DNA of 62,549 bases, the filler included, from Dirinaria sp. TL-2023a (lineage: Eukaryota): NCBI GenBank assembly GCA_051941275.1. It is 12 parts of 12 records of this genome, joined end to end, with 100 filler letters (N's around TTAATTAATTAA, not from the genome) between each part and the next. Parts side by side here need not be neighbours in the genome. Positions count along the whole stretch, not along the records: positions 57,461 to 62,549 come from JAVEBF010001724.1; 11 more parts are not named here. One strand, given 5' to 3'. Made by a program: the position numbers and the translations under genes. Under the pieces are notes generated by a model. The model was not told the origin of the DNA. It did no database searches and saw nothing but the letters and a program-made list of their open reading frames with translations. This document shows positions 5,155 to 62,549 of this stretch, one piece after another (the stretch's first letter is position 1; every line of letters begins with the position of its first letter).

Positions 5155-5254
5155 NNNNNNNNNNNNNNNNNNNNNNNNNNNNNNNNNNNNNNNNNNNNTT
5201 AATTAATTAANNNNNNNNNNNNNNNNNNNNNNNNNNNNNNNNNNNNNNNNNNNN
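5155..5254. other. Artificial contig spacer (44 N + TTAATTAATTAA + 44 N); also at 10394, 15630, 20864, 26088, 31309, 36523, 41735, 46946, 52155 and 57361
   Basis: Identical 100-nt linker with stops in all six frames. The contigs between linkers shrink steadily from 5139 to 5106 nt. Confidence 0.98.
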
Positions 5255-10393: not shown

Positions 10394-10493
10394 NNNNNNN
10401 NNNNNNNNNNNNNNNNNNNNNNNNNNNNNNNNNNNNNTTAATTAATTAANNNNNNNNNNNNNNNNNNNNNNNNNNNNNNNNNNNNNNNNNNNN

Positions 10494-15572: not shown

Positions 15573-15774
15573 TTAAAGAGTCTCTTTCGTTCTCGCTTCA
15601 CTCCCTTCACTGAGGAAGGTATTGATGAANNNNNNNNNNNNNNNNNNNNNNNNNNNNNNNNNNNNNNNNNNNNTTAATTAATTAANNNNNNNNNNNNNNN
15701 NNNNNNNNNNNNNNNNNNNNNNNNNNNNNCTTATAGGTAGGCGAAAAGGGGGGATCGGTCGGAGCAAAACGTAC

Positions 15775-20050: not shown

Positions 20051-20963
20051 TCTCGTAAAAGACATACTCTGCCCACTAGAACGTCAACATGTTACAATTA
20101 CCGCCAATTAAATCCCTTCTTTCATGATGGCTTCTTTCGATATCCACTATTCATCCATCATGCGCTTAGCCGCTTGTATAGGGGTAGTAGCTGGCTTCAT
20201 GATGGCCTAAAATATTCGGTGATCAGCGATTGATATGGTTGAGGGTTTGTTCTAGACACTTTCACTAAGTCCTGCCGAGACAATACCAAAACATTACCCG
20301 CCATCACAGCTCGTCTCACCGCTGATATTCGTCTGTGAAAACGAAAACCTACCTAATCTAATGTGCAAAGAAGAAGGGTACCTTATACTTTCTTTAATTC
20401 CCTATGATTCCTCCATGCAAGCAGCAAGGCAAGAAAAGTAGCAGATACCTTATCTATTGCCGCAGCTGATTCATCCCCCAGAAATCATTACTTATTCAAA
20501 AAGCTCTGCTGCATCCAAGATGAACCAATTATATTAACTTCATTGTTCACTGTATGTTTATATAAAGTAAAGAAATTATATCTTGGACCTTGTTCTGAAT
20601 AATATAAACCATATAACAGCAGCTTTAAAGAATACTCATGCTCCCCACTGTGGGTATTCATTGTGCATCCGCCTCGCATCGTCTTTTCCATCCTCCGAAA
20701 GTCAACATTCTTAAACCATTGCCCCCCTTTTTCAGTTGAAAAAAAAAAAAAAAAACCTTCGATCGACAAGTCTGACGCTTGATACAACTCGTTTGAATAG
20801 TCTGTCCATTGATGATTCCATCTTCTGTTACTCTTCACCTCCATAAGGTATCTAAACACCCCCNNNNNNNNNNNNNNNNNNNNNNNNNNNNNNNNNNNNN
20901 NNNNNNNTTAATTAATTAANNNNNNNNNNNNNNNNNNNNNNNNNNNNNNNNNNNNNNNNNNNN

Positions 20964-26086: not shown

Positions 26087-26233
26087 GNNNNNNNNNNNNN
26101 NNNNNNNNNNNNNNNNNNNNNNNNNNNNNNNTTAATTAATTAANNNNNNNNNNNNNNNNNNNNNNNNNNNNNNNNNNNNNNNNNNNNAGAGGGAGAAGTG
26201 AAGAAGGCTAATTTGGTGCGTGTGCAATTCTAG

Positions 26234-30600: not shown

Positions 30601-31430
30601 GATAGACGAGGGCTTTAGCAGAAAATGCACAGATGTGCGCTCATACGTGCAAATCCCACCTGGGGCACTTGAACAGGGAAAAAAGAGGATGACACCGCTT
30701 CAGGGAGAATCAGCCTCGAAAGCTAATTCGCAATAATGCCCGAATACGGTGCAAAGACAAACACCTGACGCATGGGCCTTTAAGCGATATTGAGCGCGTA
30801 TCGCGGATATTACCCAGCACACTTAAGGAGCTTTAGGGGTTTCTATACTACCCTCCTCTAAAGCAAGAGCATACCTTATTATCGAACCCCCCCAGCGCCA
30901 ACCCTCTCAAGTCCATTCCCAAAAAAGCAAGAACATTTATCCAACAGATAAGAATAATTTAAAAAAAAAAAAAAAAAAGTATCAGCAAATCATTTTTTTT
31001 TTTTTTTCCCAAGAACAACCCATTCCTTCATTTCCACAAAATATCCCCTCCAGCAAGGCAACTTAACAAGCTATCAAGACTACTTATGTTCCATAGATAC
31101 TCCTACTCAAAATAGTTCTACCCCGAATCCATATACACATAACATCAAATTACATCATACAAGAACACCCTCCCATCATCGAGTATCTCTTCCCGTCTTT
31201 CGCACTTCGCAGTGGGCGCTAAAGTAGATCACGCAGAGTATGGAGATAGGAAATAGCTAATGTAAAAATAGTAGGCGGGAAATAATATCTTGGAGGTTAT
31301 GGCTGTCTNNNNNNNNNNNNNNNNNNNNNNNNNNNNNNNNNNNNNNNNNNNNTTAATTAATTAANNNNNNNNNNNNNNNNNNNNNNNNNNNNNNNNNNNN
31401 NNNNNNNNGGGATAGGAGGGGAAAACGCAC

Positions 31431-36488: not shown

Positions 36489-36622
36489 GTAAGCTTTATC
36501 CCCCCTCCCCCCTCCCTGGATCNNNNNNNNNNNNNNNNNNNNNNNNNNNNNNNNNNNNNNNNNNNNTTAATTAATTAANNNNNNNNNNNNNNNNNNNNNN
36601 NNNNNNNNNNNNNNNNNNNNNN

Positions 36623-41347: not shown

Positions 41348-44300
41348 GCTGATGCGAATATAGATTTAGGACAAGCATATGACACAAAATTGTGATTCGT
41401 TGATCAGTAAGTAGATGCAACAAGGTCGAATGATGCAATGACGACAAAACAATGACATCGCAAAATTACGCACTCCTGGCGCAATTTTCTTATCATCTCA
41501 TAAGATTCCTTTCTTTTTTCACATTGAGATGTCAAGTTAATAACACACGCATATAAGTTTACTCATAGATCAGCCTCGAGCCAATTGTATTAAAGAGCAA
41601 AATCCTCGCGTACAAAAAATTATCCGATCCTCTTCAAAAACATACCTTATCTGTAATAAGGCCCTGGTAGCAGTAGTGCACACCACCCCTCAGTTTCAAC
41701 CCCCAAAACTCACAATCATCTACACCTCAAATCCNNNNNNNNNNNNNNNNNNNNNNNNNNNNNNNNNNNNNNNNNNNNTTAATTAATTAANNNNNNNNNN
41801 NNNNNNNNNNNNNNNNNNNNNNNNNNNNNNNNNNGGTTATTGAGTGGAGGGAGGGAGACAGTGGGTTTGAGGGGGGGATATATTATCTATAAACGTCAGC
41901 GCGGCGAAGACGAAGGAAGAGGTCGAAAGAATTTTTTGTGCGCTGCGATTAATGAAACTATAGAGAGAGATGCGAATCAAATGAAAGAAAAGAAAAAAAA
42001 AAAAAAAATGTGAATATAGATTTAAGATCGAGGAAAGAAGAGTTTGGATGGGGATTGTATGAGGATCTGGGAGCTGGGATAGATTAATAGTGGTTACTCG
42101 CGTTTCTCTGATGCTGGATCTTTGAGAGGAGTAGGCAGCTTATATGTAGGCAGGTAGGTAGGTTGGTTATATACTGCTTAAGTACCAAATCCCTAGCAGG
42201 CAATAGATAAACCTTAACAGTAGAAAAAAAAAAGAAATACGGGAATCGAAATCCTATTCTTAGAGTCTATATATTTGATGAGTTAGATTCTAGAAACACA
42301 GCCATAGAACAGAAATATAAACGAGGAATAGGGGAAGACATATTCACAGCCTGATAGGCAGCGCATCGAAACGCTTAATATATATACATGCGTATACTGT
42401 AGGTACGGTTCTTGATTGACTGATTTGAGGGAGGTAGGGATGATGGGCATCATAAATAGGAATAAGGGGTTTGGGGAAACAGACGGGTTTATTATTTTGC
42501 CTAGGTAAAGTAAGATACGGCAGGATTTGAGTGAGTGATTTATTGATTGCTTTTGAGGATGTGATATGTGATGTAAGGTGTAGTGTAGGGGAAAGGAGGG
42601 GAAGTTATGGAGTTGATTCAGGGGAGAATGTGGTGTGGATGCGCATGCTCAATGCGATGAAACATTTCGGTCTTGAGAAGGTGGGACTTTATGAGGTCAT
42701 GATATCGATTTTTGAAGCTTTGGATACTTGAAAATAAAAGATCGGTTATAATGAGTGTGTAAGGGAGAACAGGGTTATGGATTATGCACGAGTAATGGAG
42801 TGGGATGGGGTATTGATTGGATTCTATATAGTGAGTGTTTTTGGGTTTGAGATGTTTAGGTGAGGGAGGTGCAGATATAGGGATTACTGGGTAGGTATTG
42901 TATGTTAGGGGTGTGGTTGGAGTTGGCGCAAGGTGATAATGAAGGCTCTTTATTGGTGGAAATCTGCCTAGGTAAGGAGCACTTAGCGGAGACTGCTTCA
43001 GAAAAGTATGTACGGTCAACTTCTCATCACAAGTTCCCAATGTATAGCCACAAATCCCAATTCTCCTCACCACCCTTCACCCCACCCCTCTTCTTTCTTT
43101 TGACATTCCTTGCGGAACATCTAAGGGAATTGAAAAGTTTATAGGCGCTTTATCTCTCTCCGTGTGTCTCTTTCTGTCTCTCACACTCTTGGAGCTACAT
43201 CCTTTTTCTAGGCTGCATTTGTATTCCTTTTCTTTGGGATTTTTTTTTTTTCTTTTCCTTTGGTCTGGTATGCGGTTTATAGTTCATCGTTTGACCCTTT
43301 GGGTGCTATACCATACGCATTACAAGATTAGTAATAGTCCAAGGCGCCAACTTTTTTGCATTCAAGAAAATCCGCAACCATTGGAAAACTGGAGATCGAA
43401 ACGGTGGTCGGCTTTGGCACTCGTGGCTTTCAATGGACGCACGCAATCCTTTTTGCAGGCAATTCAATTTAACCGTCTCGAGCGAAACTGGAGCAACCGC
43501 AAAATCTTTCATATTTACGCATGATTCTGAGTCACTTGCCGGCATATATTTTGTCTAGCGATAGTACAATTGCAGCGAACTTGTTTGCTCGAATTCCATC
43601 GCTTGCAGGTCAAGACTCTATGAAAAAGTCTTGCTAGATCTCTCTCTCAGGAAGTAAAGAAAGCTGGAGGTAAATTGCAATTTTTGCTGAGTTTACTTGG
43701 TGCTGATGTCGGTGTGAACTGTCAAGCTAGTTTTTGATTGTGGTTTCTTCTTTTCTTTTCTTTTTTTTTTTGGAGCGGCGTGAGAGAGGTTCCACAGGAT
43801 TCCCACTGTCAGCTCTGTCAGCCGAGCCAGCCGCTTCCCCTCCCATACCTCCCGCTTCCAATTACAGGTTCCGGGAGCATTATTACACCCCGGGGCTTGC
43901 ATACCCTATGCGAGAATCAGATCACATCTTTCAGGTCACCCTATCAGATTCGACATCGACCGCTCACGTCTTACTAGTCTAGATGCTTCCGATGCTGAGT
44001 GAGAATTTCTTCAATATGTAAGACGCTGTCGTTGTCGAGATGATTTAGGAATTGTTAGCGATTGCTGTTTAAATGGTATTTTAGTTTTATGAGGGACTGC
44101 GCAATGATTCGTTGGCGCTAATAAAGAATATTTTGGATTTCTCAAAGTTGATATTGGGCGTAGGTGGATGTCAATAGGCGAAGCCTTCGGTTGTCAACAA
44201 ATGCTCCGACGTCGGGCGGTTTCCGATGGTTCGGAACGATATGCTAAGCTATTTTTTTAGGCGTTTCTGCTTTATCTTATCGCTATCAATCGCCGAAACC

Positions 44301-46308: not shown

Positions 46309-47535
46309 GGCTGCGTACGAGGACTTTCAATCACGAAAACCAGATTATCATGCTGACTGGTCCGATGTTCGAGTTAGTTGAATTCACACCAAGGTATGAC
46401 TGCGATCTAGATTTGACTTCTCGGAACTGCAGCCGCTCGACAAGCGCACCATATTCCCAGATCGAGGATCGATGATGTTTTGACGCCCACAACGATAGAG
46501 AGCATGGCATCGTGCGACGAAAAATAGACATTAGAATAGATTTCATGCATGCAAATGCTTCTTCAGCTTTCCAGCCTTCAATCTCGATCCGATTCGCAGC
46601 AAGTTTCGATAGTGCTCGGTTGATCCAATTCGTCCGAAGTTATCTTACATTCCAACCATCGGAAAACCAAGTTTCGAAGGTTGGACAAAGAAAAAACCGG
46701 TTGGCGACCCCACAATCACTCCTTTCCATATTTCCACGAAATCCGATAGGTCCACCCTTTCTCCAAGGTACCTTAAGGTTTCTCGCAGGAAAGAAAACCT
46801 GGTTTCGATGTACAAAGTAAAAGGTAAAGGAGGTACGGTACGGAGTAAGTAAAGTAGGTTCCACACGCGCCCCCACACACATCCCTTACTCTTATTCCCC
46901 CACCTCCAACCCAAGTCACATGACAAAGTATGACGTGCATTCTGTNNNNNNNNNNNNNNNNNNNNNNNNNNNNNNNNNNNNNNNNNNNNTTAATTAATTA
47001 ANNNNNNNNNNNNNNNNNNNNNNNNNNNNNNNNNNNNNNNNNNNNCCGCCGAACGGCCCCTTGTAAGCCTTTAGGTGCATCCAATTGGCGCCGGGCTGCG
47101 TTCCGCTGACGCCACGCACCTCCTGTATGATTTGTCTCGTCTGTATCCCTCAGCTGCCTTCGAGTCCGCGGCCCCTTGGGCGGCTCTAAAGCGGGTCACA
47201 GCATCCACATTGATTCCTGCCAATCCCTGGCGCAGTTTCATTGTTCGGACAATTAACACAGTTGGTCGTGCGAGCCGTGCCTAGATGCCAGTAGCGCACA
47301 ATGGTTTTTTACTTCTTCCGTGTTTCAGCTCGTGTGATATGGTGCACTATGTTTACTTTCTCAGCTGATCTTTCTACCTCTGGCTTGCATACTACCGGAT
47401 GGTTTACGTCCATTTTTTCCAAGCAAATCTAGGTCCCTCGGTCGGCACCTCCTTTAACGGCTTTCCCTACAGCAATGCAAGCATACACTGGTTTCTGGCT
47501 CATGCCTTACTCGGAGCGATCTTCTTTTAGTGGTG

Positions 47536-51308: not shown

Positions 51309-52254
51309 TCACAGATGCAGAAGCGCCTACAACAGTTCTCAGAGCTAGCAATATCACGGATTAGACAAGTGGACTCTCGGCCTTGCATGGGAATTCAAGT
51401 GTGCAGGAGCCTCCCCTCGCCCGAAGGGACTTGCCGAATGGACACCCCCTTTTACTATTTTGACTCACTTCTTTTCCAATGAATCGGAGGAACGACTCTC
51501 AAAATCAAAAAGCATTTTGAAAACGATAAAAATCTTTCGATGGAAAGTAGTCGATTCGAAGCTTCCTCAATCCAAAGACGGTCAACTCCATCCAAAAGTC
51601 AAAAACTTTGCCAAAAAAAAAATCGTACAATTAAATCGAGAGTTGATTTTAAAAAAAGAAAAAGAAAAATAGGCGCATGCAAGAAGGCCAATTTAATTTC
51701 CCCCACCTACCCATACATATATTGGACGAAAGACTCCCAGAGAATCAAAGAGCGTAAAACAACAACAGTTGTTTAATCCTCTCGCTCCATTCTCGGAAAG
51801 ACAAGAGTTTAAAAAAAAAAAAAAGAGCTCCGAGAGTCGAAGGCACCATAATAACTCTATGAGAGGAAACATAGATCGGGACAATCAAAATCAAAGACCA
51901 AAGTCACTTGGGAAGGAGAGGGGGAAGCGGGGGTGAGGGTCAAAATAAGTGTAGGGGGGAAAAAAAAAGAAAAAAGAGAAAAGAAAAAAAAAAAAAAAAA
52001 AAAAAAGAGACAAAGTGTCAAACCCAGCGCCTCTGCTTCGAAAAGAAAGTAAATAGCACTAGCCTGCCTATAGATATAGCCAGCGTCAGAAATCCCTCCG
52101 CCCGTCGGGAGAGTTGGCTTTGCTAGCCTGAATAAACAAGTAGCTAATCAACTCNNNNNNNNNNNNNNNNNNNNNNNNNNNNNNNNNNNNNNNNNNNNTT
52201 AATTAATTAANNNNNNNNNNNNNNNNNNNNNNNNNNNNNNNNNNNNNNNNNNNN

Positions 52255-57360: not shown

Positions 57361-57460
57361 NNNNNNNNNNNNNNNNNNNNNNNNNNNNNNNNNNNNNNNN
57401 NNNNTTAATTAATTAANNNNNNNNNNNNNNNNNNNNNNNNNNNNNNNNNNNNNNNNNNNN

Positions 57461-57549
<89 letters not shown>
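57461..57549 (+). repeat. Poly(A) homopolymer at contig start
   Basis: 89 consecutive A. Confidence 0.95.
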
Positions 57550-57551
<2 letters not shown>

Positions 57552-60091
57552 AAGAAGAAAAACGAAGCTAGAGATACAAAGACTTCACGCACTGGATCAA
57601 CAGCTAAGTAAAATCGGTCTCATCAAAACTTTGGGCCGAATGCAGCCACAGAGCCCTTATCAATAATGATTCCGGAACCGGAATCACTCTATTCCTTCGA
57701 GCGACTCCAGGTCCACATACAAGGATACCAAGATGACTAAGAATACCCATTCGCACACGAAAGAACCCTGGAATCAGTGAAGATTGATTTTGATGAATTG
57801 AATATATCTGCGTTGCCTGGGTTTCTGTTTGGTTAATTCTCCAAAAGTAAGGGCTACTGTACCACCATAGGTCTTCCAGTCGAGGAATATCATGAACCTG
57901 ATGCTTCCTTTTCACATGTGTTACACACTTGCGGCCATAAATTCGCAGAGTGACTGATTTCGCTAGAGGCTGGATCGCCGCTTTCCATTCCAAATCGCAT
58001 GGAGTTTCGGATAAATGAACAGGCTCACAAGCTAACAAGGTTTGGAATATCTCGGGGTTTCCGATCTCGGTGCTAGGACCGACTCTGGGTTTGTGTCCAA
58101 CCGTTAGCGGCCAAAGCAACTGTTATGCTAGTGAGGAGAATGAATGGAGTTCTCATACCAAGAGTTGGAAAGGGCTATTCAAGGCGGTCCGAAGATCCAC
58201 CGGTGGCCCGGTTCCGACCTTTCCTGATATGAGCTAGTGTCTTGGCATGCCGCTTCTCAACATCTCACAGACAAAACATCTACTTGATCGTGATACGCAG
58301 GTCGTACTTCAAAACGGTGATTATGATGCGACATATGCATCCCGCGCTGTCTCAGCATCGGCCATCGCAATGCTATTAACCTTCCGCCCGAGCCCCTGGC
58401 CTTCTCACAGGCGTCATCGAAACCCGACAGACCGGATTGCTCTTTGGTCAAGCTAGACTCTCGCCTGCAATTGGAGTATAATGTGGATGAAGCATGAGAT
58501 ATTGGAGCTCTGCTACACTTCTCGAATCCCTTTATTTTCTTACATAAATACTCTAATGCCACCAAAATTTGTTGTCGGTTCACGGACTCCCTCTACTGAC
58601 CCTAAGCATTCTTCAAATAAGCATGAGTAGCTGTCTGAACCAGCGTTATGTGACATCAGATGTCTACCTCTGGTCTTTATCTGCTTATGCACCACCGTTT
58701 CTGTCCAGAACTTTGTCATTCTCCTCCTAGTCTCCTGCATCTCCATAAGTACAAATCTCGTTGAAGGGCTTCGTGGCGTATCTACCATGGGAGTGAGCAG
58801 TGGTGTGCGACTGCTGAGCGGTGGGTGGCGTGCAATGAACACGAGGAACAGCGTCTACCTCAGGATCTAGATCCACAACGGGTGCTCCTGTCACAAGGTC
58901 GGGCAGTTCGACGTCAACCCCTACTAAGATCTTCTGTCAGCGACACAATCTCGTACGCACTTGCTACAAGATAGAAGGTACCTTCAGGCCTTTGGAAAGC
59001 GTCATGAGCTCGTAAGGTCTTGAACCAGGAAAGAATGTGACGGATAGTGAATAGACTCCCGGCAACAGCTAGAATCCTAACGATATAGGTAATTTGTTGA
59101 TCATTATACCACATGCTAGAAACCTGGGAATCTAAAGAATAGGTCTCGTTGAAAATAGGGCGAAAGACAGGAGTATTCAAGGATGTGTTGAGGGATGGCA
59201 TATTCCTGGCCACTTTGTGAAGGCTACTCGTGCTTGAGCATCTGGTAGAATAAAGAGTTTGAGCAAGACGGTACCAGGACAGGAGGGAGCAGCCTCCCTT
59301 TTATCTCGTGCCCGGACAGGGCGCCGAAACTCTTAGGACATTCGGCCAGTGCCCAGCATTGCCGGGGCATGGGACAACTCGAGCTTTCTGAGGCTACATG
59401 AGCTTATATAAATGCATGAAAAGACAGATTTGAGGCACAAGGCAATGAAAGGAGGGCGCGGCATACTCTTTTAAGCTGCCCGAGCCCCGCTTTGTGAGGC
59501 CGCTGCCAGAACTCGGAGAAGTCAGCGCACATAGCCCGTTTTGATACATTCGCACAACGATACATCGAACCGGTGGGCGTTTGTAAGCTCGTTTTGTAGG
59601 TAGGTTTAATTGGTCGACCACACGTGGGTGCCTGGACACGAAGCGGATGTCCAAAGCCTCGTCACTCATAAAATTTACCTACATTGAGAGGCCGTTTTGC
59701 CTTCCATCACCTGCATGAGTAGCAGGCTAACAGGACTAGGCCTGAAATGAATGTCCGAAGCCTCACAGGCCATAGTCGGCACTCCCAGAAGTCCTTCTGC
59801 TTAGGGATTCCCCTACCTGAGCTAGACCCCAAACAGATACCCGAAGCCTTAAGTTGTCATACGCACCTGGCACAACGAGCTGCAGGTATGCCCTGTCTTC
59901 GGCATGCTGCATACAATCTAAGGCAAATGTGGGTAGGTACCTCAGTCATCGGGTGAGATGCAACACCACCAGCCGAAGCATGAATGGGGTCGGCGAAGCC
60001 TCGTCCCTAACTGTCAAGCATCACCAGCTTTCCTTCAAACCACCATCGTACAATCTCAACATCACTCTACAATAGCAACATACTGCACCAA

Positions 60092-62549
60092 ATGGCAGAA
60101 GATACAGTTTTACGCGGTGATGTTATTGAATATCGTGATGCTCAAAGATGTGAGCCGTGTCAGAGCAGGGCCCAGAGTTGCATAATGATGGGGGCAGAGA
60201 CCTGTCTGCTTTGTTGGGATACTGCGCGACCTTGCATCTTCGAGCGTACGGTGCGATTTCGCGGACCGGCGACGCGACTTACATCGCATTTGATGAATGC
60301 GAGAGAGATACTAATAAGTTTGGACAAAGATTCTGATGCTATCGCTCTAAGGTAAGTACTCACGCTTGCTTAGTTGCAGGCGTATACTGCTACAAAAAGG
60401 TCAGCGCTAACATATTAAGATCCCTCTTGCATGCCTCCACCAAACCGGTCGGTCCCCCTGAAATAGCCCCCCAAGAAACAGCACAAAGATTTTCAAGTGG
60501 AAACTTCAGCAATAATGAAAACGCTCCTTCATTCCAGATTTTTGATTTCCAGATGGAACATGTGAAGACAAGGCGTCCAAACCCTTCGCAGGTGAACAAG
60601 GACCAAATCGCTGAAGTACGTAAAACCGGCGCGTGTGGCGAGTGTCGGAGCAAGCACAGAAAGGTGAGTGCAACCAGCTCAGTGTGATCAGAGCTAATGT
60701 GAGATTCCCATCAGTGCGACCATTTCCTCGGTGACCGCAATCAGACACAGGTAGAGGCAGAAAGAGAAAAGGAGATCACCGAAGCAGCTCAACTACTCGA
60801 TGAATATACGTCTATTTCCGACACAACCCATGTACAAGTACTCCCACAAAATTCAAAAGTCAAATGTCTCCACTGCAACAAGCATCCGGAAGGCTTTCGA
60901 GGAGAACATGAGCTTCGAAGACACATGGAGCGAGATCATACGGCAAAGCGAAAAGTATGGATTTGCTTTGATGCGACCAGCGACGGCAACTTTCTCGCCG
61001 GTTGCCAAGCATGCCAAAGACGCAAAACTTACAACGCATACTACAATGCTGCTGCTCATTTGCGTAGGGTACATTTTAATTCGTCGCGAAAGAGAAGGGC
61101 AAGTGAAACATCAACCCGCGGAGACACTCGTGACGACCACGTCCGGGGTGAATACCCTTCGATGGAGGTGCTCAAGAAGTTCATGGTCGAGGATGAAGTA
61201 AATACGATGGACTATAACACGTCGGATGCAGCCGAAGGAGACACTGACGATGACGCGGCTGCTCTGCAGTGGGCTGCGGGCATGCAGATGCTGTCAGATC
61301 AGCAGGCTGGCATCAACATACAAGGTCAAGATTGTGGCAAGGCACTGGAAGCGGCATCATCTGCAGGCCATTGCCAAGTGGTGCAGATCTTGCTTAATCA
61401 AAATAGTAATACCGAGCTACACTCATACTACGGCTCATTGCAGGCGGCGTCAGCAAGTGGTCATGTCGAGGTGGTGCAGATGCTGCTGAATTATGGGGCT
61501 GACATTGACGCACAAGATGAGGCGTATGGCAATGCACTGGGAGCAGCATCAGAAAATGGTCATTCAGCTGTGGTGAAGATGCTGCTTGATCAAAAGAAGA
61601 ACATCGCCCCAGACTTCTGTAGCATTGCACTGGAGTTGGCGTCAAAAAATGATCATGCCGAAGTGGCGCAAAAGCTGCTCGATCACGAAGCTGATTTTGA
61701 TGCACAAGATAAGCTTCGTCGCAACGCATTGCAAACAGCATCACAATATGGTTATGCAAAAATGGTGCAGCTGCTGCTCGGTCGCGAAGCTGATGTCGAT
61801 GCACAAGAGGAGCTACACAGTGACGCACTACGAACCGCATCGGAGTATGGTCATATTAATGTGGTGCAGATGTTGCTTCGCCAGACTTTTGATAACAACT
61901 GGCACTTCGCGAGTAGAGCACTAAACTCGGCGTCAAAAAACGGTCATGCAAATGTAGTGCGGATGCTGCTTGATCATGAAGATTCTTTCAGCGCAACCTT
62001 TTATTGCTTTGCACTGAAGTCGGCGTCAGCAAATGGGCATGCAAATGTTGCGCAACTGCTGCTCAAACATGAGATTGATATCAACCCAAATGCTTATAGC
62101 GAGCCACTGGAATTGGCGTCACAAAATGGTCATGCAAATGTGGTACAATTGCTGCTCGATCATGAGGCTGATATTGACCCGCACTCGTTACGCTACTCGC
62201 TGGAGTTGGCGTCAGAGAATGGTTATGCAGATGTGGTGCAGAAGTTACTTGACCATGAGACTGACATCGACCCGTACGCCTATTACGATGCACTGCAGAA
62301 TGCATTAAAAAAAGAACACGCAGACGCTATGCAGATGCTGCGTGATGATCGGCCTGAGTTAAGTCCATACTATTGCAGCGATTCACTCAACATGGCGTCA
62401 AAAAATGGACACGGAAATGTGGTGCAAATGCTGCTCAATCATGATGCAGATATCCATTCAGAGTCCTATAGGGATGCACTTCAAAATGCATCAAAAGAGG
62501 GACATGTAGAAGTGGTTCAGATGCTGCTAAACTTTGAAGCTGATATGGA
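60092..62549 (+). CDS. Multi-zinc-finger + ankyrin-repeat protein (Zn2Cys6-spaced cluster, second Cys/His module, KLAP1-like fingers, at least 13 ANK); runs off window
   Basis: Exons 60092-60351, 60420-60663 and 60715-end, with canonical introns (GTAAGT..CTAAC..AAG; GTGAGT..CTAAT..CAG). The third exon has no stop for 1835 nt, so the ORF track omits it. Confidence 0.85.
61342..62549 (+). repeat. Ankyrin repeat array (13 units, 31- or 33-aa period)
   Basis: AL..AS.NGH..VV.MLL...AD units with DNA-level similarity (GCGTCA...AATGGTCATGC...GTGGTGCA). Confidence 0.92.

Follow-up and report, generated by a model that had tools for sequence, protein, structure and literature searches.

How does a zinc-finger regulator of the Key lime pathogenicity (KLAP1-like, DUF7896) family come to carry, on the same chain, a long array of ankyrin repeats of the kind found in fungal NOD-like receptors (NLRs), and is this union real? 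The question is raised by a gene at the 3' end of a 62,549-nucleotide (nt) stretch of DNA from the lichen-forming ascomycete Dirinaria sp. TL-2023a (GCA_051941275.1), which was analysed as a whole and is referred to here as the window. The gene combines domains of known families in a new way, and this is seen on one contig. We consider it moderately probable that it arose when a KLAP1-like zinc-finger regulator acquired, by a lineage-specific fusion at its 3' end, an ankyrin array of the NLR type, the array being a putative protein-binding platform.

The gene has three exons, which after splicing give a stop-free frame of 2337 nt (779 codons) that holds four parts in succession: an N-terminal six-cysteine domain (termed here the N-domain), a half cluster of three cysteines and a histidine, a DUF7896 region with two C2H2-like fingers, and an acidic linker that leads into the ankyrin array (Table 1). 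An initial annotation, made from the sequence, had claimed a single spliced open reading frame (ORF) carrying all four parts, and we found them where it had placed them. The two introns it had proposed have canonical ends and join the exons into the stop-free frame, and the second of them is also part of the deposited gene model. Read without splicing, the frame of exon 1 hits a stop at 60355 and that of exon 2 at 60687. Exon 3 is by itself one open frame of 1833 nt, which contains both DUF7896 and the ankyrin repeats, the other two forward frames being interrupted by 11 and 49 stops, respectively. The cysteines of the product are residues 20, 23, 30, 38, 41 and 48, followed by 159, 162 and 169, and then by 219, 222, 252, 265 and 268. 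No RNA run matched among the sequencing runs searched, and the introns of this model are predicted from the sequence.

The DUF7896 region matches the Pfam family PF25438 with 77.9 bits (cut-off 25, E-value 6.2e-22) over profile positions 2-82 of 83, and the match also spans the basic patch RKRR and a helix/strand with the pattern P-x-M-x-x-L-K-x-x-M. The basic patches of the region as a whole are K-R-K, R-R-K and R-K-R-R. In an alignment of 35 sequences, that of the window included, the eight ligands of the two fingers are invariant (C12, C15, H31, H36, C58, C61, H76 and H81), and finger 1 gives in addition a weak match to zf-BED (19.8-21.9 bits, with a cut-off of 20.6). The AlphaFold (AF2) model of the region has a mean predicted local distance difference test (pLDDT) score of 82, and a comparison of the region with the sequences of solved structures gave 0 matches. 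The link to Key lime pathogenicity proteins, which the initial annotation had drawn, is borne out by two DUF7896 matches that carry this name, P0075 and P0082. The available text of PMC12735693, with reference to Chen et al. 2005, calls KLAP1 a putative transcription activator required for pathogenicity; the term DUF7896 was not found in the literature searched. The KLAP1-like/DUF7896 proteins of Pezizomycotina resemble the product of the window gene in having both fingers, a P-x-M-x-x-L-K-x-W-M element and an acidic tail, but the mainstream members differ from it by a long disordered N-terminus and by having neither the six-cysteine domain nor ankyrins.

To place the gene among its relatives we considered the best 120 of 980 DUF7896 relatives of similar length and the best 120 of 178 longer ones (together 240 of 1158). 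PF25438 is the sole family in 119 of the 120 listed proteins of similar length and in 117 of the 120 longer ones. Ankyrins occur in one of the 240, which is the gene's own product, and in none of the best 120 longer relatives; they are also absent from all 42 relatives of the N-domain. The combination is thus uncommon, in line with the initial annotation, for which the family was not known to have ankyrins, and a literature search on architectures uniting ankyrin repeats with C2H2 and Zn2Cys6 modules retrieved nothing related. Two proteins illustrate other surroundings of the same domain: P0124 from Hyaloscypha sp. carries DUF7708, NPHP3_N and GPIID_WHD followed by a C-terminal DUF7896, and P0122 from Trapelia coarctata has a protein kinase domain followed by DUF7896. 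DUF7896 is therefore found alone, behind a Zn2Cys6-fold domain, a kinase or the nucleotide-binding and oligomerization domain (NOD) of an NLR, or ahead of ankyrins, which suggests a mobile module.

Behind the acidic linker, for which at least 13 repeats had been predicted, we counted 13 ankyrin repeats in register, covered in Pfam by 11 stretches of Ank_2 (E-value 5.7e-89). They follow the consensus A-L-x-x-A-S-x-x-G-H-x-x-V-V-x-x-L-L, in which L, A and LL are kept in 12-13 of the 13 repeats and G and H in 11 of 13. The array is acidic (27 K/R vs 60 D/E), and the segment that leads into it, residues 335-372 (about 61216-61329, reaching into the first ankyrin repeat), has 0 K/R and 7 D/E. Pairwise identity between the repeat cores has a mean of 48% and a maximum of 72%, and Tandem Repeats Finder resolves two sub-arrays with 74-76% matches at the DNA level. 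Among the matches listed, the best non-self ones are 38-41% identical over 95-100% of the array and lie mostly on NACHT-type NLR proteins; of the 119 non-self ankyrin relatives listed, 71 (by hand count) have NPHP3_N, NACHT or GPIID_WHD, and none has DUF7896. The earlier assignment of the repeats to a type typical of fungal NLRs agrees with this count. A search of the ESM Atlas with the array retrieved generic ankyrin clusters only, from many taxa.

The N-terminal part of the protein requires a separate discussion. The exact Zn(II)2Cys6 spacing attributed to the six-cysteine module is indeed present, its pattern C-x2-C-x6-C-x7-C-x2-C-x6-C fitting the Zn2Cys6 rule C-x2-C-x6-C-x5-12-C-x2-C-x6-8-C. 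The 86-residue product of exon 1 has 42 relatives, counted as representative clusters at an E-value of at most 0.001 (P0242-P0283), 11 of them at 1e-10 or below. In the alignment of 36 N-domain sequences five of the cysteines never vary (C20, C23, C30, C38 and C41), and the sixth, C48, has a conservation of at least 90%. The N-domains of all 42 relatives match no Pfam family at E-values up to 0.01, and a profile of the domain compared with the PDB sequences gave 0 matches at E-values up to 10. The AF2 model of the N-domain (pLDDT 86) gave Zn2Cys6 domains at all of ranks 1-14 in a Foldseek search (Put3, Gal4, Pho7, Leu3, Lac9, AlcR and Hap1), with weak E-values of 0.17-3.2, and in a VIA comparison over 48,161 chains all 10 matches with Z of at least 2 were Zn2Cys6 domains, again weak (Z 2.1-3.7; for Leu3, Z 3.5 and a root-mean-square deviation (rmsd) of 1.7 over 39 aligned residues). 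Weak individual matches are to be expected of a core of 30 residues. The model points to a divergent member of the Zn2Cys6 fold that has an additional hairpin at its N-terminus and lies outside the reach of the Pfam model. The same domain also heads a second set of proteins, which end in a different C2H2 block (P0265, P0271 from Lambiella insularis, P0278 and P0282), and those N-domain relatives that have source names come from lichen fungi, namely Ramalina, Gyalolechia and Lambiella.

In three proteins the N-domain and DUF7896 stand together: P0250, P0251 (Ramalina farinacea) and P0252 (Gyalolechia sp.). These three N-domain relatives support the assignment of exon 1 to the window gene. They resemble its product in the N-domain with all six cysteines, in DUF7896 and in the acidic end, but they terminate about 5 to 90 residues from the acidic tail, where the window gene adds at least 13 ankyrin repeats. 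For P0250 and P0252 the end lies within the acidic tail, at the place where the half-repeat cap and the array of the window gene begin, and P0251 runs roughly 85 residues past it, without repeats. The three zinc modules thus appear to be the standard layout of a small lichen (Lecanoromycete) subfamily and not a one-off, only the ankyrin tail being special. In residues about 237-253 P0252 has a 17-residue V...Q insert precisely where the window gene has its 51-nt intron 2, which suggests a conserved intron that the gene caller retained since it is open in frame.

Between the N-domain and the DUF7896 region, straddling intron 2, lies the basic half cluster that had been proposed to end on C-D-H at the start of exon 3. 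We found it as C159, C162 and C169, the next cysteine being residue 219, so that it has half of the six cysteines of a two-zinc cluster. It matches Zn_clus over profile positions 2-15 of 39 below the threshold (16.5 bits vs a cut-off of 21, E-value 0.009). The surrounding block G-A-C-x-E-C...R-K aligns at the same place in P0252, which has C-T-H for the C-D-H of the window gene; P0247, which lacks DUF7896, holds the block by eye, but MAFFT did not align that copy there. A decayed full Zn2Cys6 domain was considered as the whole story of the half cluster and rejected, because C-x2-C-x6-C-x-H recurs in P0252, an argument that amounts to a guess from two sequences.

In the fusion reading that we favour, the normal stop behind the acidic tail would have been lost in this lineage, and the frame would now run into an NLR-type ankyrin array. 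The zinc modules and basic patches would bring the protein to nucleic acid, most likely nuclear DNA, and the acidic array would be a platform that recruits a protein partner or is held by one, serving as ankyrin repeats do in the fungal bANK factors. The latter (ToxE, Aps2 and Apf2) are described in the available text of PMC4109984 as cluster-specific regulators with a bZIP-type basic region and four ankyrin repeats; DNA binding by ToxE involves both parts, and Apf2 resides in the nucleus (PMC4109984, same text). The window gene resembles them in that a DNA-binding region, here a putative one, is joined to C-terminal ankyrins, and they offer the nearest known way of working, as a principle only and with no kinship of sequence claimed; it differs in having zinc fingers and at least 13 repeats, and in matching no bZIP family in Pfam at E-values up to 1.

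Several observations weigh against the fusion reading, some of them by touching on the reality of the locus. No orthologue of the same layout is present among the DUF7896, N-domain and ankyrin matches listed. The contig, 5089 nt of a metagenome-assembled genome, stops within the ankyrin array and does not cover the C-terminus of the product. The deposited model P0002 (563 residues, Q9191_007693, a hypothetical protein of the same metagenome-assembled genome) starts at the methionine of exon 2 and so lacks exon 1. In the DNA sequencing run X1, in which 9% of the sampled words are present, the locus is represented by three short contigs (59900-60037, 61942-61970 and 62164-62546), none of which bridges the junction or an intron. 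An assembly chimera, in which the assembler joined a DUF7896 gene to an ankyrin gene unrelated to it, both from the lichen metagenome, would agree with a short metagenome-derived contig broken off inside a repeat array, with an architecture found once only (in one of the 240 listed DUF7896 relatives and 0 of the 42 N-domain relatives), and with the fact that no independent read or contig runs across 61150-61400. Such a join would, however, be confined to a unique stretch of roughly 60 nt between the acidic tail and the half-repeat cap, and would in addition need to leave an open frame of 1290 nt. The base composition is equal on the two sides, GC and GC3 (GC content at third codon positions) being 0.489/0.468 before and 0.480/0.464 after the junction. 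We found no repeat common to the two halves that could have misled the assembler (tblastn of the halves against the window gave 3 matches, all inside the gene), and X1 contains pieces, not joined to each other, that match the two ends of the locus at 95-99%. We regard a chimera as unlikely, and that the fusion is real in the genome as likely, with fair confidence.

The 3' end of P0002 differs from our model as well. P0002 excises 53 nt near 62274-62326, which cuts repeat 11, and the shifted frame stops immediately, after six codons (ending R-Y-A-D-A-A). The unspliced frame past 62274-62326 runs in register through repeats 11-13 up to the contig end, and the 53-nt intron looks like an artefact of closing the model at the end of the contig. 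The junction left by intron 2 (K followed by C-D-H) is identical in P0002.

Further points against the fusion reading concern the age and condition of the gene. At 0.47, its GC3 lies under the range of 0.52-0.64 seen in seven long ORFs from the remaining contigs of the window, and a 330-nt contig of X1 differs from 62164-62493 at 8 listed positions, of which 6 alter the residue, mostly in the repeat loops. One of these differences, at 62342 (R to L), restores the repeat consensus. The residue changes would fit relaxed or diversifying evolution, or a paralogue, and are too few to tell selection from paralogy. They bear on the proposal that the fusion is real but young, resulting from insertion of an NLR fragment or from a deletion, with a product that is neutral, weakly expressed or decaying; a singleton without an orthologue among the relatives listed, a GC3 below that of other ORFs of the bin, the preponderance of non-synonymous differences to the X1 contig, and a Zn2Cys6-fold module low in basic residues would all suit it. 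So would the long branch of the DUF7896 domain, whose end branch is 1.2 against a median of 0.16 in the tree of this domain. The four genes with an N-domain, however, have branches of 1.1-1.4 and group together, if weakly (69/83 support), in a part of the tree where long branches meet. As the other three are equally long-branched, rapid evolution marks the subfamily as a whole and does not set this copy apart. The zinc ligands, both splice sites and the ankyrin consensus are, moreover, all intact over 2337 nt, and we think a decaying or neutral newcomer somewhat unlikely.

The remaining points against the fusion reading touch on DNA binding. A Pfam search of exon 1 at E-values up to 10 detected no family, Zn_clus (PF00172) included. 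The N-domain has fewer basic residues than the family consensus, R-A-Q-S standing where the consensus has R-x-R-K, as had been noticed at the outset when the module was said to lack the usual basic residues. Since the N-domain is poor in basic residues and misses the Zn_clus model, its direct contact with DNA is doubtful. The structural matches of the DUF7896 region are weak too: Foldseek retrieved mostly tandem C2H2 fingers (best E-value 0.45), and the best VIA match was a viral zinc finger (Z 5.0, rmsd 1.6 over 44 aligned residues), followed by CTCF (Z 3.8) and Tramtrack (Z 3.6).

A different role for the array is suggested by NF-kappaB p105/p100, single chains that have a DNA-binding N-terminal half and, behind it, an ankyrin array. 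The window gene differs from them in having no Rel homology domain by Pfam, and masking of the zinc modules by the array would be an analogy only. By this analogy the array may sense a ligand or an effector and free or block the DNA-binding modules, as in p105, or else the zinc modules may serve as an effector decoy. The kinship of the array to NLRs speaks for such a role, as does the absence of an NTPase, which had been proposed before and agrees with our Pfam search: at E-values up to 1, no P-loop/NOD NTPase family was found in the three exon products, i.e. in the visible 779 residues. Since the sequence stops at 62549 and the C-terminus is not covered, a further domain, a NOD included, remains a small doubt.

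With no NOD in these 779 residues, the gene falls outside the definition of an NLR. It shares with NACHT-type NLRs (NPHP3_N/NACHT - GPIID_WHD - Ank) the C-terminal repeats and their consensus, but it has no NOD or winged-helix domain ahead of the array, and its N-terminus consists of zinc fingers and not of a death or enzymatic effector domain. NLRs with C2H2 fingers, such as those of Sordariales and P0124, come closer in that they unite fingers with NLR building blocks, P0124 itself with DUF7896. In the available text of PMC12258605, 57 NLRs of Sordariales are reported to contain zinc fingers, 34 of them of the C2H2 type and mostly C-terminal, and only treble-clef fingers are said to adjoin canonical repeats. 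The fingers of these NLRs are located C-terminally of the NOD and replace the repeats, whereas the window gene has its fingers at the N-terminus and repeats behind them, without a NOD. That text of PMC12258605 describes no layout of this kind, and DUF7896 is not mentioned in the 12 of its 17 supplement files that were searched.

The union of DUF7896 with NLR parts in P0124 of Hyaloscypha lends the sensor or decoy role further weight, and so do the C2H2 fingers in the 34 NLRs of Sordariales, as the available text of PMC12258605 discusses non-canonical domains as sensors or integrated decoys. On the other side, the repeats lie below the conservation of rapidly diversifying NLR arrays. The criterion for highly conserved NLR repeats (Dyrka et al. 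2014) is at least 85% over 100 residues, and the class so defined, to which 10% of NLR ankyrin arrays belong, has been tied to concerted, diversifying evolution (PMC4986451, in the text available). With a mean of 48% and a maximum of 72%, the array of the window gene is outside this class, which is not required for NLR membership. Moreover, no signalling route is known for a decoy that has neither a NOD nor a death domain, and the visible sequence stops before the C-terminus. We consider the sensor or decoy role improbable. A bolder form of it, to which we likewise give a small chance, is a one-chain, NTPase-less receptor-regulator, in which the NLR-derived array would sense and directly gate the KLAP1-type DNA-binding module in the manner of p105. 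If this were true, then together with the NLR from Hyaloscypha it would make KLAP1-like regulators a recurrent target or output node of immune-type surveillance in fungi, with a lichen symbiosis as the present case.

As to the surroundings of the gene, the window consists of 12 unlinked contigs of 5089-5154 nt each, laid end to end with 11 spacers. The DNA before 57461 belongs to other contigs behind spacers, hence it has no upstream linkage to the gene, and neighbourhood across the spacers is meaningless. The contig of the gene begins with a 90-nt run of A (57461-57550), probably an assembly-end artefact or a low-complexity tract, and four ORFs of 84-172 codons in its 5' part (57604-60075) have no Pfam family. 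The missing 3' end of the gene was sought on the other 11 contigs by tblastn with both gene halves, which gave 3 matches, all within the gene.

Table 1. Coordinates of the gene, its predicted parts and the contig that carries it, counted along the whole window.
Feature	Position	Strand	Remarks
Spacers (11)	5155-5254, 10394-10493, 15630-15729, 20864-20963, 26088-26187, 31309-31408, 36523-36622, 41735-41834, 46946-47045, 52155-52254, 57361-57460		N44-TTAATTAATTAA-N44
Contig of the gene	57461-62549		5089 nt; upstream bound is a spacer; last base is the last base of the window
Exon 1	60092-60351	+	ATG at 60092; residues 1-86 plus two bases of codon 87
N-domain	60092-60271	+	beta hairpin and predicted six-cysteine Zn2Cys6-fold module; Cys codons span 60149-60235
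Intron 1, predicted	60352-60419	+	68 nt; GTAAGT ... GCTAAC ... AG, canonical ends
Exon 2	60420-60663	+	low-complexity linker, then conserved block F-x-x-F-D-x-Q-M...R-K-x-G-A-C-x-E-C...R-K
Half cluster	60634-60645 (Cys159/Cys162, exon 2) and start of exon 3 (Cys169-x-His171)	+	C-x2-C-x6-C-x-H
Intron 2, predicted	60664-60714	+	51 nt; GTGAGT ... GCTAAT ... CAG; in-frame stops inside
Exon 3 (P0001)	60715-62547	+	611 codons, open up to the contig end; starts with Cys169-x-His171
C2H2-like finger 1	60865-60939	+	C-x2-C-x15-H-x4-H; upstream of the Pfam DUF7896 match
Pfam DUF7896 (PF25438) match	60949-61191	+	P0001 residues 79-159
C2H2-like finger 2	61003-61074	+	C-x2-C-x14-H-x4-H; inside the DUF7896 match
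Fusion junction	61192-61326	+	acidic tail, then half-repeat cap (from about 61255)
Ankyrin repeats (13)	61327-62547	+	units of 31 or 33 residues; last unit of 29, cut by the contig end

The value of the finding is limited by its resting on a single contig that is cut within the array. The N-domain, if it is a Zn2Cys6-fold family outside Pfam's model as its predicted structure suggests, bears on the counts of transcription factors in lichen genomes. A natural fusion of the two would offer a direct handle both on the functions of fungal NLR-type repeat arrays, through the partner that the array binds, and on the control of KLAP1-like regulators, through any effect of this binding on the zinc-finger part.

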